DNA of 40,352 nucleotides from a virus. Taxonomy: Duplodnaviria > Heunggongvirae > Uroviricota > Caudoviricetes. The DNA lies in IMG/VR virus record IMGVR_UViG_2923302340_000006, positions 1-40,352 of that record; one strand, written 5' to 3'. The stretch's first letter is position 1. The number at the start of each line of letters is the position of its first letter. Under the pieces are notes generated by a model that was not told where the DNA came from, made no database searches, and saw nothing but the letters and a program-made list of their open reading frames with translations. The position numbers and the translations under genes were made by a program. Shown here piece by piece: positions 3,745-20,308 of this stretch.

Positions 3745-3968
3745 TTTCTGTAGGCTTCGATGGCCTCACGAAACATCTTTTCATCGCCAATAAAAGTGGC
3801 GATAGTGAATTTAGTCTGGATAGCCATAAGTGTTTGATCCATTCTTTGGGACTCCTGGCTGATTAAGTATGTCGATAAGGCGTTTCCATCCGTCACGTAA
3901 TTTACGGGTAATTCGTTCAAGTAAAGATTCGGAAGGGCAGCCAGCAACAGGCCACCCTGCAATGGCAT
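3729..3968 (-). CDS. hypothetical protein
   Basis: 79-aa ORF, overlaps the next gene start. Confidence 0.35.
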   Translation of the reverse strand: MPLQGGLLLAALPNLYLNELPVNYVTDGNALSTYLISQESQRMDQTLMAIQTKFTIATFIGDEKMFREAIEAYRKWRSK

Positions 3969-4047
3969 ATTGCATGGTGTGCTCCTTATTTATACATAAC
4001 GAAAAACGCCTCGAGTGAAGCGTTATTGGTATGCGGTAACGCCGCGT

Positions 4048-6844: not shown

Positions 6845-7597
6845 TTATGCTGCAAGTCTCTTAACCCAAGTCTCTCTTTTGGAGAATGGTAGAACTTGGC
6901 TTGATTCATGGAAGAGTAAGGAGAGTTGTTGCATTTGGTCACCAATTGCTTCGCTGTCTATAACAACAAATCTGTTGTTATACTCCTCACTTGATGCTTT
7001 AAGATCAATTAGTTTCCCAAGCAATGAGTAAGCACTATTCCAGCTTCCTCCGTGTTTCACGCTTGATGTAAAAACGTATTTAGGTATGTCGGTTTTTATT
7101 GTTACAGGGACGGTAATTTGATGTCCACTCAAGCCATATACGTTTTCACGAAGAGAAAGTGCGTCTCTAAGCTCTGTGTGATATAGATAATCAATAACCA
7201 TACTTTCAAACTTTTCAGCTTGAACTGGCTGATACCAGTCTAACGACAAAGTTGATGCGAGTATACCAGCTCTAATTATGTTCGATGTAATCGCACCGAC
7301 ATCCTTTTCTGTTGCCCAAGCAATGATTTCTCCTCGATCATTGAGCTCTGCGCCTTCTTTAAGCAGTAATTGTCGTATCTCATCAAGTCGTTTTTTGGTA
7401 AGCGAGATCCCTCTTGCCTCCATATTCATTAAGGCATCGCATCTATCACTAACTAAATACCTACCATTGACTTCACGGATAAAAGCACCGACATGCTCTC
7501 CATCATCACAGTAAGTGAATGGACTGATAATTCTCAAGGTCTTGCCTATTGGATGGCATTCGAAACCTAGTTGTGAGATCACTGTTGAGCACATCAT
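6845..7597 (-). CDS. unknown protein, distal gene of the cI-adjacent two-gene cassette (rexB position)
   Basis: 250-aa ORF; ATG overlaps the stop of the upstream gene (ATGA); AT-rich; no motif I can assign. Confidence 0.6.
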   Translation of the reverse strand: MMCSTVISQLGFECHPIGKTLRIISPFTYCDDGEHVGAFIREVNGRYLVSDRCDALMNMEARGISLTKKRLDEIRQLLLKEGAELNDRGEIIAWATEKDVGAITSNIIRAGILASTLSLDWYQPVQAEKFESMVIDYLYHTELRDALSLRENVYGLSGHQITVPVTIKTDIPKYVFTSSVKHGGSWNSAYSLLGKLIDLKASSEEYNNRFVVIDSEAIGDQMQQLSLLFHESSQVLPFSKRETWVKRLAA

Positions 7598-8151
7598 ATT
7601 CCAAACCCCATTTGCCCCGACTCATCTTCAAGTGGTAAAGGTATTCTCCCAGAGTAAGTTATGTTCAGATGTTTACAGAAGTAATTCCAATACCCTACCA
7701 GGTCATCTGGGTTTATGTCATCTTCGATTGGAAACGCTATTCTATCACTATAGTATCCAGCTTCTTCATAGTATACATGGTAGTGAGCACCGTAAATGAT
7801 ATCTTGGTACTTCGGATGATCGACCTTGTAACTATTCGTGTGTTTGTCAAAGTGATAGGTATCTACCGCGAAAACCCTCTTGTTATGATAGAAAGCAATA
7901 ATATTTATTTTAGGGTAAGAAATCGGGTCATCAGGTTCTGAATCCTGATCTGGTTTCCATTTCAGTTCAAACTTTAGCCCTTGTATAGGTATACAATCCT
8001 CATCCAAGGGGATGATATGAGCTTGTAGCCACATATCAGAGCGACTTGGTTTCTGTTTCCATTTAACGCCAGAAAAGTTAACTATTTTTTTACAATAAAG
8101 TACTTTATCAACTTCTACTTGGCTTGGCTGATAATCATCTATTTTTGCCAA
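7594..8151 (-). CDS. unknown protein, proximal gene of the cI-adjacent two-gene cassette (rexA position)
   Basis: 185-aa ORF beginning 90 bp downstream of cI on the same strand; apparent TTG start; Asp/Tyr/His-rich; no recognised domain. Confidence 0.55.
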   Translation of the reverse strand: MAKIDDYQPSQVEVDKVLYCKKIVNFSGVKWKQKPSRSDMWLQAHIIPLDEDCIPIQGLKFELKWKPDQDSEPDDPISYPKINIIAFYHNKRVFAVDTYHFDKHTNSYKVDHPKYQDIIYGAHYHVYYEEAGYYSDRIAFPIEDDINPDDLVGYWNYFCKHLNITYSGRIPLPLEDESGQMGFGI

Positions 8152-8241: not shown

Positions 8242-8946
8242 TCACGAACTTTTCAGCCACTCCCTTGCCTCAATGTCATCCAGATGGCGAGATTGCTTCA
8301 GAATACCAGCTACATACTCCACCTTTGCTACTTGATGATAAGGCAACGTTATTGGCCTATGATCCTGGTTGATGCTTGTAAACTGGTATTCTCCGTCTCT
8401 GTCATAGCCAAGAACTTTGATCATGTTGTGTCCTTCAACGGTTCTGACAAACACCTCATCACCCGGGAATACTTTGGTGTTAGGCTCAATGAGTACATAT
8501 TCTCCTGATTTTATTCTAGGCCACATGCTGTCTCCTTTCACACGAAGACCAAAGGCATCTGGATCATCGCTATAAATCTTGAGCCACCCATCGCGCTCTT
8601 CGGTCATCTCGATGGCACCATCAACACCAAGAATTGCCTCACCAACCACGCGCACTAACCCTTTTCTTACCTGACCGACAAAAGTTAAAGAATCTGAGCA
8701 TGATGCAATTGGTGTTACATCATGTACCAAATCAAGCCACCCATTAGGTAACCCAAGTGCGGCTTCGAATTTTCTTGCTAGTTTATCCCCTATGTTTCGA
8801 GTGCTTTTTTCACCGGAGACTTGCGTGAGTTGAGAAGGGCTAACTCCAAGCTTATCGGCAAAGCTTGCATTAGTGTTACCCGCGATTTTTTTATGCTCAT
8901 CTAGCAAAAACGCCAGATTCGATTTGCGAATATCTTTGTTTTCCAT
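8242..8946 (-). CDS. cI: cI-type prophage repressor (HTH + LexA-like S24 autopeptidase domain)
   Basis: 234 aa; N-terminal HTH; C-terminal GDSMWP Ser motif with downstream Lys; divergent from cro. Confidence 0.85.
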   Translation of the reverse strand: MENKDIRKSNLAFLLDEHKKIAGNTNASFADKLGVSPSQLTQVSGEKSTRNIGDKLARKFEAALGLPNGWLDLVHDVTPIASCSDSLTFVGQVRKGLVRVVGEAILGVDGAIEMTEERDGWLKIYSDDPDAFGLRVKGDSMWPRIKSGEYVLIEPNTKVFPGDEVFVRTVEGHNMIKVLGYDRDGEYQFTSINQDHRPITLPYHQVAKVEYVAGILKQSRHLDDIEAREWLKSS

Positions 8947-12474: not shown

Positions 12475-12831
12475 ATGGACGAATCAAGAAAGCAGTTTGA
12501 AGAATACGTTGCCAAAAAATTGAGATTACCATTCGAGATGATAACCGAGGCAAGAAATGGTGATAGGTACTTCGCATTTTCAAGTATGGATATTCGTCAC
12601 TCCTTAAATGAGTGGTGGGCTTTATGGCAGGCATCGCGAGCAGCTATTGAACTGGATATCGACTGGCCCGAATCGAATGACGACTTTTGGAAAGATGGTG
12701 AAGAAGGTGCTTATGCGATGGGTTATGAGGATGGGAGAGACAAAACGGTAATTGCAGTAATGAAAGCTATCAGAGCCGCTGGAATTAAAGAGAAGAATTT
12801 CGATGAAGCAAACAATCTTCCTCCGAACTAA
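12475..12831 (+). CDS. hypothetical protein
   Basis: 118-aa acidic ORF. Confidence 0.5.
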   Translation: MDESRKQFEEYVAKKLRLPFEMITEARNGDRYFAFSSMDIRHSLNEWWALWQASRAAIELDIDWPESNDDFWKDGEEGAYAMGYEDGRDKTVIAVMKAIRAAGIKEKNFDEANNLPPN

Positions 12832-13213
12832 GCAACAACAGCAAGCTGCAATAAATGCCATCCTCGCAACACCACTCGATAAAGACAAGCCAGTCACCAT
12901 CCGCATTACTGACTACAAGCGCAACCTTGACCAGAACGCAAAATTTCACGCGATGCTGGCGGATATCGCTCGTCAGGTTCAATGGTGCGGCAAATGGTTA
13001 AAACCAGAACAATGGAAGGTTTTGTTGATCAGCGGTCATGCAGTGGCAACAAAACAGGAAGCTGATGTTTTGCCCGGGCTTGAAGGCGAATACGTCAACA
13101 TTCGCGAAAGCAGCGCGCAGATGAGTGTGAAGCGTATGGCAAGTCTTATCGAGTACACAACAGCCTGGGCTATTGGTCATGGTGTCAGATTTACCGACAG
13201 GAGGTACGAATGA
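12803..13213 (+). CDS. ninB: NinB-like recombination protein
   Basis: 136 aa; resembles lambda NinB (e.g. [20 protein letters not shown] vs lambda LDQNRKLWACLGDVSRQVEW). Confidence 0.75.
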
Positions 13214-13386
13214 GACGACAGCGACGAAGTATCACCGACATCATCTGCGAAAACTGCAAATACCTTCCAACGAAACGCTCCAGAAATAAACGCAAGCCAA
13301 TCCCAAAAGAATCTGACGTAAAAACCTTCAATTACACGGCTCACCTGTGGGATATCCGGTGGATAAGACATCGTGCGAGGAAATAA
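13210..13386 (+). CDS. ninE: NinE
   Basis: 58-aa ORF not in the supplied track; [51 protein letters not shown]... matches lambda NinE from memory; ATGA overlap with ninB. Confidence 0.8.
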
Positions 13387-13391
13387 GGGGA

Positions 13392-13505
13392 TTGACGCGA
13401 TGATTTATCCGGGGCTATATTCCTCACACGCCAGCAAAATCTGGCGTCGGGATTGGCATCCCGGATAGAAACCGCGACAGATACACGCCGCGAGCGTGTT
13501 TTTTA
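13392..13505 (+). promoter_or_regulatory. candidate promoter + structured leader/sRNA + intrinsic terminator
   Basis: -35 TTGACG (13392..13397), -10 TATATT (13416..13421); hairpins 13430..13445 and 13447..13464; terminator acacgc-cgcga-gcgtgt + T-run (13483..13505). Confidence 0.45.
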
Positions 13506-13665
13506 TTGTCGTATGCACGCGCACATCTGAATTATGGTGGGCTGTGTGGGGGCGGAGAGATCCGCGCCGGTCGGTTTCCCGGTTATGCCAACCCTGCACA
13601 GTTCACCACCAGATGATTGGCATCGTCGGTGGTGGGTTATTTAGAAACCACCAGAGGGCGTCATT

Positions 13666-14349
13666 ATGACAACTCAAATCTCTGTTGAAACTCTCTCCCC
13701 GATCACCCATAACCAGATACCTGTTATTACCACTGAACTTTTGGCGCAGCTTTACGGCACAGAAGCGATTCGCATTCAGCAAAATCACGCCAGAAACGCT
13801 GAACGTTTTATTGAAGGTAAGCATTTTTATAAATTAGTGGGCGATGAGCTTAGAGGTATGAAGCACAGACTATCTTTAAGCGAGTCTGTGAAAATTGCCC
13901 GCAACGTTCGCTCTCTCATCCTCTGGACAGAACGCGGCGCAGCCCGTCACGCCAAAATGCTCGAAACCGATCAGGCGTGGGATGTGTTCGAAAAACTGGA
14001 AGACTGCTATTTCAGGCAGTGCAAGAAAAATACTGGCAAACAAGAGAAGAGCACCAACGAGCTTTCCGCAAAAGAAGCAAACAGCCTTGTATGGTTATGG
14101 GATTATGCCAACCGCTCACAGGCATTATTCCGCGAACTGTATCCGGCATTAAAACAAATTCAATCGAACTATTCCGGCAGATGCTACGACTACGGTCATG
14201 AGTTCTCGTATGTTATTGGAATGGCAAGAGACGTTTTAATAAACCACACACGAGATGTTGATATCAATGAGCCAGACGGACCAACAAATCTTTCCGCATG
14301 GATAAGGCTTAAGAACAAAGAATTACCTCCTTCACTGCATCGCTACTGA
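13666..14349 (+). CDS. antirepressor-like protein (ORF6N-type N-terminal domain + C-terminal domain shared with Ant)
   Basis: 227 aa; N-terminal segment resembles ORF6N domains; C-terminal ~100 aa nearly identical to the C-terminus of the ant product (35542..36420). Confidence 0.7.
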
Positions 14350-14400
14350 CAATTGACAACTTAACAAACCCAGCTTCGGCTGGGTTTTTTATTGCTGAAT
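14038..14400 (+). repeat. direct repeat copy A (~340 bp, ~95% identical to 36112..36445)
   Basis: 3' coding end of the ORF6N-type gene plus its terminator. Confidence 0.85.
14369..14391 (+). terminator. intrinsic terminator
   Basis: cccagc-ttcg-gctggg followed by TTTTTT. Confidence 0.8.
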
Positions 14401-14417
14401 TTTCAATGTGAGAGGAC

Positions 14418-15146
14418 ATGACAATGAATGAGCTGATAAATAACAATGCCATCAAAATGACAAGCATTGAAATCGCTGAGTTGGTGGGAAGCCAACACGG
14501 TAATGTCAGAATATCAATAGAACGTCTGGCAAAGCGTGGGGTGATTCAACTTCCTCCAATGCAAAAAGTTGAAAATAAACAAACAATTAGCCCTAACAAA
14601 TTCACAAGCGTGTATATATTCGAAGGCGAACAAGGTAAGCGCGATAGTATCATTGTCGTCGCCCAGTTGTCGCCAGAGTTCACCGCTCGCCTTGTTGACC
14701 GCTGGCGAGAACTCGAAGGGGCAACCGCGAAAATCCCACAAACCTTCTCTGAAGCATTGCGCCTCGCGGCTGACCTTGAAGACCAGAAGGCTGAACTGGA
14801 GAAACAGCTTGCTCTCGCAGCACCTAAAGTTGATTTTGCCGATCGCGTTGGCGAGGCCAGCGGAATTTTGATTGGAAACTTTGCAAAGGTTGTTGGAATT
14901 GGTCCAAACAAACTGTTTGCGTGGATGCGCGATCACAAAATCCTTATTGCTTCAGGTTCCCGGCGCAATGTGCCAATGCAGGAATATATGGATCGCGGCT
15001 ATTTCACAGTGAAAGAAACAGCGGTCAACACAAATCACGGAATACAGATATCGTTCACCACAAAAATCACCGGGCGTGGTCAACAGTGGCTGACCAGAAA
15101 GCTGCTCGATAACGGAATGCTGAAAGTAACAGGGGAGGCTGCTTAA
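14418..15146 (+). CDS. Rha-family regulator / antirepressor with KilA-C-like C-terminal domain
   Basis: 242 aa; N-terminal Rha-like segment ([14 protein letters not shown]); C-terminal Ant-like domain. Confidence 0.65.
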
Positions 15147-15751
15147 TGGCTAAACCAGCGCGAAGGAAATGCAAAATATGCAAGGAATGGTTTCACCCGG
15201 CATTCTCAAATCAGTGGTGGTGCTGCCCGGAACACGGAACTCAGTTAGCACTCAAACTACAAAGTAAACAGCGAAAAAAAGCGGAAAAAGCAGCAGAGAA
15301 GAAACGACGACGAGAGGAGCAGAAACAGAAAGATAAACTGAAGATTCGAAAACTCGCCTTAAAGCCCCGCAGTTACTGGATTAAACAAGCCCAACAAGCC
15401 GTAAACGCCTTCATCAGAGAAAGAGACCGCGACTTACCATGTATCTCGTGCGGAACGCTCACGTCTGCTCAGTGGGATGCCGGACATTACCGGACAACTG
15501 CTGCGGCACCTCAACTCCGATTTGATGAACGCAATATTCACAAGCAATGCGTGGTGTGCAACCAGCACAAAAGCGGAAATCTCGTTCCGTATCGCGTCGA
15601 ACTGATTAATCGCATCGGGCAGGAAGCAGTAGACGAAATCGAATCAAACCATAACCGCCATCGCTGGACTGTCGAAGAGTGCAGAGCCATCAAGGCGGAG
15701 TATCAGCAGAAACTCAAAGACCTGCGAAACAGCAGAAGTGAGGCCGCATGA
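15146..15751 (+). CDS. ninG: NinG (Rap) recombination endonuclease
   Basis: 201 aa; matches lambda NinG over most of its length from memory. Confidence 0.9.
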
Positions 15752-15954
15752 CGTTCTCAGTAAAAACCATTCCAGACATGCTCGTTGAAGCATACGGAAA
15801 CCAGACAGAAGTAGCACGCAGACTGAAATGTAGTCGCGGTACGGTCAGAAAATACGTTGATGATAAAGACGGGAAAATGCACGCCATCGTCAACGACGTT
15901 CTCATGGTTCATCGCGGATGGAGTGAAAGAGATGCGCTATTACGAAAGAATTGA
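15748..15954 (+). CDS. ninH: NinH
   Basis: 68 aa; matches lambda NinH from memory. Confidence 0.85.
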
Positions 15955-19103: not shown

Positions 19104-19321
19104 TTTTAATTTCACTGAAATTTAACAAGTGACTTTCAGGAAAATGCCTCGCAGATGCGGGGCGTTTTTGTATAGGTATTTCACCGCGCACCGCAGCGCA
19201 CAATAACCACCGAACCTGACCCTTTGGAATGGGCCTTTGAGGATACCAGTTAGTGCTGGCGAGCCTCGGTGGGCTGGTTTCCTGTGCGGCAAAGGTTCAT
19301 TTCGAAGTAGCAGGTAACGCC

Positions 19322-19735
19322 ATGAATGAATTAATTGTGAATCATGACTTTGACTTTCGCCAGTTAGTTACCGCAGCAGAAGGTCAACCGGTAACTGACA
19401 CCTTCCAGATCGCAAAGGCATTTGGTAAGCGTCATGCGGACGTATTGAGGGCGCTGAAAAATTGTCATTGCTCTGAAGATTTCCGGAGAGCGCATTTTTG
19501 CGTTGCCGAAAAAATCAATGACTTAGGGATTTTTGACAAGAAACAGATTTACTACCGCATGGACTTTAGTGGCTTCGTTATGCTGGTCATGGGATTTAAT
19601 GGCGCAAAAGCCGACGCTGTTAAAGAGGCCTATATAAATGCCTTTAACTGGATGTCTGCAGAACTCCGTAAGTACAGCGAAAGTTATGAACCAGAACGCA
19701 GCCGCAGAGGAAGCATTTCAGTTCATTGGCACTGA
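19322..19735 (+). CDS. rha: Rha-family phage regulatory protein (possibly truncated)
   Basis: Rha-like segment; start taken at MNELIV (ATG 19322) rather than ORF start 19253; an overlapping ORF 19638..19865 in another frame may be its displaced C-terminus. Confidence 0.55.
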   Translation: MNELIVNHDFDFRQLVTAAEGQPVTDTFQIAKAFGKRHADVLRALKNCHCSEDFRRAHFCVAEKINDLGIFDKKQIYYRMDFSGFVMLVMGFNGAKADAVKEAYINAFNWMSAELRKYSESYEPERSRRGSISVHWH

Positions 19736-19867
19736 CGAGCTGAAGCTTGAGCTATTCAAAATTCACTTCCAGTCAGGCGGCGCTAATTCAGATATCACGA
19801 CCCGCACTATCGAAGCGGTGCGCAAATCGAAGGAAGCGTTAGACCTGTTCACTACCGGAGCATAAAC

Positions 19868-20308
19868 ATGGCGCGCCCAACAAAGTATCAAGAGGCGTAC
19901 GCCGAACAGGCACGCAAACTGTGCTTGCTGGGCTACACCGATGCAGAGCTTGCTGATTTCTTCGAAGTCAGTGAGTCAACTATTAACAAGTGGAAGCTTG
20001 ATTATCCTGAGTTTTCGGAGTCCATAAAAAAGGGTAAGGCCGTTGCTGATGCAGAAGTTAGTGACCGTCTTTATCAACGCGCTATGGGCTTCGTGGCTCC
20101 AGACATCGATATTCGTGTTATTGAAAACAGAGTTGTCGAAACTCCGCTTGAGAAGTATTACCCGCCTGATACAACCGCCGCCATCTTCTGGCTTAAGAAC
20201 CGACAGAAGGATAAATGGCGCGACAAGGTTGATCACGAACTAACAGGCAAAGACGGCGGCGCAATTCAGATTGAAACATCACCGATGAGCACTCTATTCG
20301 GAAAATGA
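19868..20308 (+). CDS. terminase small subunit
   Basis: 146 aa; HTH-like GYTDAELADFFEVSESTINKWK; immediately upstream of and overlapping the large terminase. Confidence 0.7.
   Translation: MARPTKYQEAYAEQARKLCLLGYTDAELADFFEVSESTINKWKLDYPEFSESIKKGKAVADAEVSDRLYQRAMGFVAPDIDIRVIENRVVETPLEKYYPPDTTAAIFWLKNRQKDKWRDKVDHELTGKDGGAIQIETSPMSTLFGK

Follow-up and report, generated by a model that had tools for sequence, protein, structure and literature searches.

In phage P1, the C4 RNA is required for full repression of ant (PMC8198154). In the isrK-orf45-anrP-isrJ locus of Gifsy-1 (Hershko-Shalev et al. 2016, PMC4825925), a promoter drives the small RNA IsrK, read-through by some of the transcripts gives an mRNA that is translationally silent, and IsrK supplied in trans turns on translation of AnrP more than 100-fold. 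AnrP induces the Gifsy-1 prophage, and its expression raises antQ transcript levels. In the Shiga toxin (Stx) phage Φ24B, deletion of ant lowers output from the late promoter pR' after norfloxacin to 27–56% of wild type, and the defect is complemented in trans (PMC3064807). Here, we describe the interval between ninE and ninG in a viral sequence of 40,352 nucleotides (nt) (IMG/VR record IMGVR_UViG_2923302340_000006, positions 1 to 40,352), which we call the window. The first gene of this interval, open reading frame 1 (ORF1), is probably the payload of a self-contained cassette whose elements are collinear with those of P1 immI (its c4 part) and of Gifsy-1 isrK-orf45-anrP. That is, ORF1 would be an antirepressor gated by two RNAs, and we put the probability of this at about 70%. 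Such a switch for prophage induction would not be new in kind; the prophage here is P22-like and has an immI region as well.

The interval and its flanks contain the following features (lengths in amino acids, aa):

13210..13386, + strand: ninE, the left flank of the cassette (Pfam NinE, E 3e-43)
13392..13421, + strand: sigma-70 promoter (TTGACG, 18-nt spacer, TATATT; 10 of 12 consensus positions)
13428..13504, + strand: IsrK / c4-a1b1 small RNA, two hairpins with upstream copies of the C4 target sites
13530..13613, + strand: C4-type antisense RNA, a long closing stem and two hairpins
13534..13644, + strand: leader ORF of 36 aa, whose AUG is homologous to the start of Gifsy-1 orf45
13617..13657, + strand: downstream C4 target sites (exact complements of C4 segments) and ORF1 ribosome-binding region
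13666..14349, + strand: ORF1, 227 aa, ORF6N and P22_AR_C domains
14366..14393, + strand: strong intrinsic terminator closing the ORF1 unit (also given as 14366-14387), a 9-bp stem followed by a T-run
14418..15146, + strand: ORF2 (roi), 242 aa, Rha-like N-terminus and KilAC/ANT C-terminus
15146..15751, + strand: ninG, the right flank of the cassette (Pfam NinG, E 1e-89)

The sequence-only reading of the window had placed two genes between ninE and ninG, where lambda has ninF. Both open reading frames are there, on the + strand, and Pfam identifies NinE and NinG on either side. We scanned the ORFs of the ninE-ORF1 gap against Pfam and found no hidden NinF; the pair does take the place of ninF. 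The ORF6N assignment of the first gene was also right; that reading had not noticed P22_AR_C, which is a second domain of the same protein. Where it went wrong was in treating the gap (13387-13665) as empty. Rfam and a consensus scan place three elements in these 280 bp: a strong promoter, the IsrK/c4-a1b1 RNA ending in a terminator, and an antisense RNA of the C4 type.

Both hexamers of the promoter (-35 and -10) are kept in all of the related leaders. By analogy, this promoter is equivalent to PisrK of Gifsy-1 and to the immI promoter of P1; the Gifsy-1 homolog is experimentally active (PMC4825925). The first RNA matches the Rfam families isrK (RF01394; 80 bits, with a gathering threshold of 50) and c4-a1b1 (RF03163; 52.4 bits, threshold 46.7), and a terminator scan places its intrinsic terminator at 13483-13504. 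The second RNA matches C4 (RF01695; 68.2 bits, threshold 45). Its minimum free energy fold is at -44.5 kcal/mol, and the consensus fold of 42 related leaders has 17 compensatory pairs.

Two segments of C4 are exposed in this fold: CGGUUUC (13572-13578) in a hairpin loop and AUGCCAA (13585-13591) in a single-stranded region. Each of them has an exact complement twice, once in IsrK and once beside the ribosome-binding site of ORF1. The copies in IsrK are UUGGCAU at 13453-13459, in the loop of hairpin 2, and GAAACCG at 13468-13474. The downstream copies are UUGGCAU at 13617-13623 and GAAACC at 13644-13649; the latter ends 16 nt before the ATG of ORF1, and the Shine-Dalgarno sequence AGAGGG is at 13652-13657.

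The immI regions of P1 and P7 have the same order of elements: a promoter, two hairpins with one target copy in a loop, the second target copy, a terminator-like hairpin, C4, both target copies again, a Shine-Dalgarno sequence, and the first ORF. In P1 the pairs are CTGTCAA/TTGACAG (two copies) and TCACTAAC/GTTAGTG(A) (two copies), with the topology and spacing seen in the window. The Rfam scores of P1 and the window are also close (68.8 vs. 68.2 bits for C4 and 51 vs. 52.4 bits for c4-a1b1), and both place a gene with a KilAC domain after the antirepressor-type gene (kilA in P1, roi here). On the other hand, the leaders are only ~51% identical, and the window's cassette lies in a lambdoid nin region rather than in a plasmid prophage. 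The window also lacks icd: ORF1 directly follows the downstream sites, in icd's place. Finally, P1 Ant1 has only the ANT/KilAC domain by Pfam, whereas ORF1 has ORF6N and P22_AR_C.

The leader of the Gifsy-1 locus is much more similar, with ~85% identity at the DNA level across the promoter, IsrK, the terminator, and the C4-like region. The genes behind it differ more. AnrP has 187 aa and no P22_AR_C domain; its ORF6N-containing N-terminal half is 66% identical to that of ORF1, but its C-terminal domain is unrelated. The ATGA overlap of orf45 with the antirepressor gene was not found in the window, and no isrJ was found downstream of ORF1, even at E values of up to 1. The Gifsy-1 locus lies after Q, while the window's cassette lies between ninE and roi/ninG. 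Also, one of the sites differs in the window by a single-nucleotide allele change, in each of its three copies (see below).

Close relatives are the ant-roi loci of Stx phages (Φ24B, 933W-like phages, VT2-Sakai, Nil2, and CP-1639), which have the same genes in the same order with the same flanks and are 91–95% identical over 2.5 kb of DNA. Unlike these, the window's phage is a podovirus of the P22-like type and has immI in addition. By similarity, the two ORFs make up the "ant-roi" module that is widespread among lambdoid phages, and public records label the 2.5-kb segment "ant" plus "roi." This segment matches 546 phage records as well as 2,477 of 5,426 complete E. coli genomes; 444 of these cover at least 80% of the query, and a genome can have matches in up to 10 places. 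Some Stx phages have tandem cassettes, antA and then antB-roi, as in phage Nil2 (2183-4152), Stx2a_WGPS6, and O157 genomes. The leaders of the Nil2-type tandem are very different, which means that two RNA specificities can coexist in one prophage. In the window there is just one cassette, and it combines an antA-type leader with an antB-type C-terminal domain.

To see how the RNA sites vary, we collected 80 loci from viral contigs (L005-L084) that encode relatives of ORF1's N-terminal domain, and we aligned their 42 distinct leaders. The single-stranded segment of C4 has 11 alleles in these leaders. Its exact complement is present upstream, in the IsrK loop, in 41 of the 42 and downstream in all 42; non-cognate pairings match at just 2.3–3.5 nt on average. 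The covariation score was 0.50 for the upstream site (0.21 in shuffles) and 0.43 for the downstream site (0.19 in shuffles). None of 500 shuffles reached the observed value in either case, and slid controls scored at most 0.125. In the b helix, 96.9% of cells are paired for both partners, with changes on both sides in 6 of 7 pairs. In one allele, an insertion of 1 nt co-varies across the three copies (UUAGGAAC/GUUCCUAA).

The hairpin-loop segment of C4 has at least 8 alleles. In most leaders, the downstream sites that match it end 8–17 nt before the start codon, and for some alleles the downstream site is the Shine-Dalgarno sequence itself (CCTCTTA/TAAGAGG). The two C4 segments reassort independently, giving 25 combinations among the 42 leaders.

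The window's allele of the single-stranded segment, AUGCCAA/UUGGCAU, is a rare, one-step allele that we saw only in the window and in a near-identical twin (L005). It differs from the commonest allele, ACGCCAA, at exactly the positions of IsrK G31 and C159, and the third copy, downstream, is changed as well. G31 and C159 were found to pair in Gifsy-1 by mutagenesis (PMC4825925).

The protein encoded by ORF1 has an ORF6N domain (residues 12-98; Pfam E 1.2e-20) and a P22_AR_C domain (residues 127-199; E 9e-30), and it matches the PHROGs family phrog_377, "anti-repressor Ant," over its full length (E 1e-82). Residues 1-120 are 66% identical to Gifsy-1 AnrP (STM2616), and the first 27 residues are identical. 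Its last 104 residues share 95% identity with the C-terminus of the window's own immI Ant, and the C-terminus is 91% identical to that of P22 Ant. Among its Stx-phage relatives, the best protein match is 84.6%. Judged by these similarities, ORF1 is an antirepressor-type protein, homologous to Gifsy-1 AnrP (through its N-terminal half) and to the Ant family of Stx phages. The P22-type Ant is the archetypal antirepressor that binds the repressor.

ORF1 and the immI ant share a 357-bp direct repeat, 14035-14390 vs. 36106-36461 (93.6% identity), that spans ORF1's terminator and the 3' end of the immI ant; the two copies are 22 kb apart in one prophage. We considered a recent gene conversion between ORF1 and the window's own immI ant, and we ruled it out. 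Our search for the 3' module covered ~88 loci plus the immI region, and 28 of the subject sequences carry the module. The nin-region ant genes of two other loci (L046 and L050) have 3' modules with 99.2% identity, closer than the window's own immI copy, so the repeat is a shared, shuffled unit and not the product of local conversion. Homologous recombination between the two copies would cost the prophage roi, the late regulator, the lysis genes, and every virion gene up to ant.

How would the switch work? We propose that the promoter fires in the lysogen and that most transcripts end at the IsrK terminator, while read-through would yield both the C4 RNA and the ORF1 mRNA, as has been shown for Gifsy-1. 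The exposed segments of C4 would pair with the two downstream sites and block translation of ORF1, as suggested by P1 and by the three-way covariation. Since IsrK carries copies of both sites, these would act as decoys, and the ratio of IsrK to C4 would set the translation of ORF1. The ORF1 protein might then help to relieve repression. The resident repressor (8242-8946) carries a Peptidase_S24 domain for autocleavage, and the cassette lacks a LexA box; the route would therefore supplement SOS induction rather than replace it. Specifically, we searched for CTGT-N8-ACAG with up to 1 mismatch and found no such box in 13387-13665; the counts across the window were those expected by chance. We therefore rejected LexA control of ORF1: it is not an SOS-gated antirepressor of the type of Gifsy GfoA or SPC32H Ant.

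We also considered whether a coupled leader peptide, like orf45 or icd, is part of the switch. The AUG of the 36-aa leader ORF is conserved, but only as part of the C4 stem. The length of the frame ranges from 8 to 47 aa across the 42 leaders, an ATGA overlap with ant occurs in just 2 of them, and the frame has no Pfam match. The leader ORF is probably not a conserved coding gene, and we rejected the coupled peptide because the frame is not conserved. Two other candidates for leader genes, an ATG at 13613 and a 57-aa ORF in the gap with a GTG start, were rejected too, as they are window-specific or match no family; the 57-aa ORF has no match to any Pfam family.

Two short stretches of the leader are nearly invariant across all of the alleles: the promoter spacer at 13398-13415 (...ATCCGGGGC...) and the loop of IsrK hairpin 1 at 13434-13441 (GCAAAAUC). 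The hairpin-1 loop is near-identical in P1 (GCAAAUUC). Neither stretch is complementary to C4. Possibilities include a protein operator, an Hfq site, or an RNase site.

Several observations do not sit easily with the switch as we have drawn it. The a-type upstream site pairs less strictly than the other sites, in 78.6% of cells. In Gifsy-1, co-expressing the C4-like RNA (STnc1160) with IsrK led to stronger growth arrest or toxicity (PMC4825925), which does not fit a simple picture in which C4 represses. Also, the published model for Gifsy-1 invokes refolding in cis or in trans, together with translational coupling of orf45 and anrP (PMC4825925). The orf45 frame is not conserved in the window, where it has 36 aa and its stop codon at 13642-13644 lies 24 nt before ORF1, so the exact mechanism may differ between relatives. 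The covariation of the downstream site supports a pairing with C4 that the Gifsy-1 model does not include. As for the protein, searches by sequence found no meaningful relatives of ORF1 or Roi with solved structures. Iyer, Koonin and Aravind (2002) reportedly traced ORF6N, Rha, and Bro-N to a shuffled pool of viral domains that are predicted to bind DNA. Because of these predicted DNA-binding modules, ORF1 could act on DNA instead of on the repressor.

The last point leads to an alternative in which ORF1 and Roi are mainly DNA-binding regulators that boost Q or the late genes, or that modulate replication or IHF-dependent steps, without contacting a repressor. In its favor, the N-terminal domains are said to come from that DNA-binding pool, AnrP expression raises antQ transcripts (PMC4825925), and the lower pR' output of Φ24B Δant is compatible with either mechanism (PMC3064807). 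We think that this alternative is somewhat unlikely, as the C-terminal domain of ORF1 is 91–95% identical to that of P22-type Ant, AnrP induces Gifsy-1 (PMC4825925), and the layout copies that of P1 immI, whose payload is an antirepressor. A more remote idea is that these genes are not regulators of induction at all, but function in superinfection exclusion, abortive infection, or killing of the host. P1 KilA, which has the KilAC domain in common with Roi, reportedly kills cells on over-expression (PMC8198154), and the N-terminus of ORF1 weakly matches the PADLOC candidate system PDC-S05 (E 1e-8). However, that match covers only the generic ORF6N domain, the system is itself a candidate, and the four other proteins that we scanned with PADLOC gave no match. 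Furthermore, Φ24B Δant had no effect on superinfection (PMC3064807). We consider this idea very unlikely.

The sequence-only reading had counted four potential antirepressors in the prophage: ORF1, Roi, a Rha-like gene after the lysis cassette, and ant in immI. In its strongest form, the four would act independently, each inactivating a cI-type repressor, and would provide four induction inputs. All four do match PHROGs families labeled as "anti-repressor" or regulator; residues 73-234 of Roi are 56% identical to Ant1/Ant2 of P1, which is a genuine antirepressor; and ORF1 and the immI Ant have the C-terminal domain of P22 Ant in common. Yet such family names are mostly transferred annotations. 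The Rha-like gene has the N-terminal domain only, a dedicated antisense RNA is found only at ORF1 and ant, and where Roi is described in PMC3430580, it is as a DNA-binding protein in lytic growth and not as an antirepressor. Four independent inputs thus seem improbable to us. Of the four, just ORF1 and the immI Ant combine the C-terminal domain of P22 Ant with control by a dedicated antisense RNA. So, that part of the count is credible, while counting Roi and the Rha-like gene goes beyond the evidence. Because Roi is described as DNA-binding and because the Rha-like gene is short, with its N-terminal domain only, we favor a more modest view, which the domain content makes credible: two antirepressors behind different antisense RNAs, plus two regulators whose roles are unclear.

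If ORF1 is gated by C4 and IsrK as proposed, the alleles of its leader might have consequences beyond a single prophage. We speculate that the C4 segments form a hypervariable and freely recombining RNA specificity code, with pairs of alleles that define "immunity groups." This idea is tentative, and we lean slightly against it. If it is true, the code would extend the two-allele heteroimmunity of P1 and P7 to a large family of lambdoid prophages, and the allele pair would decide whose nin-region antirepressor C4 can silence or IsrK can unlock in trans, whether from a co-resident or an incoming phage. Polylysogens such as E. coli O157, with up to 10 matching loci per genome, are where this would be of consequence. 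The window would then represent a rare allele that was fixed simultaneously at three copies, along with two differently gated antirepressors that have nearly the same effector domain. A single leader has an IsrK loop that does not match its own C4. In this locus (L048, in IMGVR_UViG_3300029840_000205, with the leader upstream of position 1501), the IsrK loop is of the GAGAC type, while its own C4 segment and downstream site are GTTCCTAA/TTAGGAAC. The leader has the look of a recombinant in which IsrK, judging from the mismatch, could not act on the C4 encoded beside it.

Neither the genes nor the RNAs are new: hundreds of Stx and lambdoid phages already have the ant-roi pair annotated, and the RNA elements are established Rfam families. 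What the comparison adds is that the induction-promoting gene of Stx-type phages appears to sit behind a P1-like two-RNA switch whose sites co-vary across many alleles. It links three literatures that are usually kept apart, on P1 c4, on Gifsy-1 IsrK, and on Stx-phage Ant. It also suggests RNA-based rules of cross-talk for the induction of prophages, and hence for the release of Shiga toxin, in strains with multiple prophages. We view the diversity of alleles and the three-way covariation of the RNA sites as the most notable by-product of this analysis.

Turning to the second gene, ORF2 is 98% identical to Roi of Stx2a phages and 82% identical, over 242 aa, to the ORF at roi's position in HK022. 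From these similarities, we conclude that ORF2 is Roi. The HK022 record leaves its ORF unannotated, but the equivalent gene is named roi in the Nil2 record. The HK022 protein is similar along its full length and shows the same Pfam pattern as ORF2 (ANT plus a sub-threshold Phage_pRha), and there is no difference of substance between them. In ORF2, ANT/KilAC covers residues 128-230 (E 6.4e-33), and the match to Phage_pRha, at 26.4 bits, is below the gathering cutoff of 29.9 bits. This means that the earlier assignment of the second gene as a Rha/KilA-C-type protein holds for KilA-C but not, at the Pfam threshold, for Rha. The true start of ORF2 is likely to be the ATG at 14424, which is 7 nt after the Shine-Dalgarno sequence GAGAGGA (14410-14416). 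Clerget and Boccard (1996) are said to have found a binding site for Roi inside the roi gene. Roi is implicated in lytic growth in PMC3430580, and the description of it there is of a DNA-binding protein that is not called an antirepressor. In the window, roi comes after the ORF1 terminator, in the position of kilA after ant in P1. It encodes a DNA-binding regulator with a KilAC domain, and its role is less clear.

The other two genes of the count are both real, and they lie elsewhere in the window, the second of them in an immI region (34978..36420) with the canonical P22-type layout:

19322..19735, + strand: short Rha-family gene located after the lysis cassette (alternative GTG start at 19253)
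34978-35217, - strand: mnt-like gene (Mnt 32% identical to P22's)
35291-35479, + strand: arc-like gene (Arc 40% identical to P22's)
35474-35540, - strand: sar antisense RNA (Rfam 70 bits)
35542-36420, + strand: immI ant (Bro-N, E 7e-20; P22_AR_C, E 3.6e-28)

The C-terminal 171 aa of the immI Ant are 83% identical to P22 Ant, and its N-terminus is Bro-N. ORF1 and this ant share P22_AR_C and the terminator, and both are expected to be gated by antisense RNA. They differ in that ORF1 has no Mnt or Arc repressors nearby, has a c4-type RNA instead of a sar-type RNA, and has ORF6N instead of P22_AR_N or Bro-N.

The Rha-like protein exceeds the thresholds of both Phage_pRha (Pfam E 4e-22; 79 bits, with a cutoff of 29.9) and TIGR02681 (69.6 bits, cutoff 45.95). 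It has 137–160 aa, compared with 182–194 aa in its relatives, and it matches only positions 1-123 of the 268 positions in phrog_518, so by its domain content it is a short form limited to the N-terminal domain. The four genes were also said to have a different N-terminal domain each. For ORF2 and the Rha-like protein, this has to be qualified: their pairwise similarity is not significant (E 0.088), but by Pfam the N-terminus of ORF2 is weakly Rha-like, which is the family of the other gene. From about residue 150 onward, the Rha-like ORF no longer resembles its relatives; it ends early, and the open frame runs on to 19866. Its 3' end (19700-19866) looks like a recombination scar. Directly after the open frame is a likely gene for the small terminase subunit (19868-20308), which has no Pfam match.

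Beside mnt in the immI region, a 347-aa protein (33919-34962, + strand) matches P63C (E 8e-14), a domain from the shuffled viral pool that also includes the regulator domains Bro-N, KilA-N, and ORF6N. This protein would be a fifth gene of the same general type in the prophage. Near the repressor, two genes (6845-8151, - strand) are in the position of lambda's rexAB and match only DUF1828 and, below the threshold, DUF6978. These could be exclusion or defense genes.

The window as a whole is a mosaic E. coli P22-like prophage, with a late region like those of CUS-3, Sf101, and phiv205-1 and an early region like those of Stx1a phages. Next to the cassette, the nin region continues with ninB on one side (12803-13213; Pfam NinB) and ninH on the other (15748-15954; a NinH match). 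The virion genes are P22-like, yet the left operon is lambda-like, and the RNA thermometer of lambda cIII is found at 3930-3988 on the - strand (Rfam, 88.5 bits).

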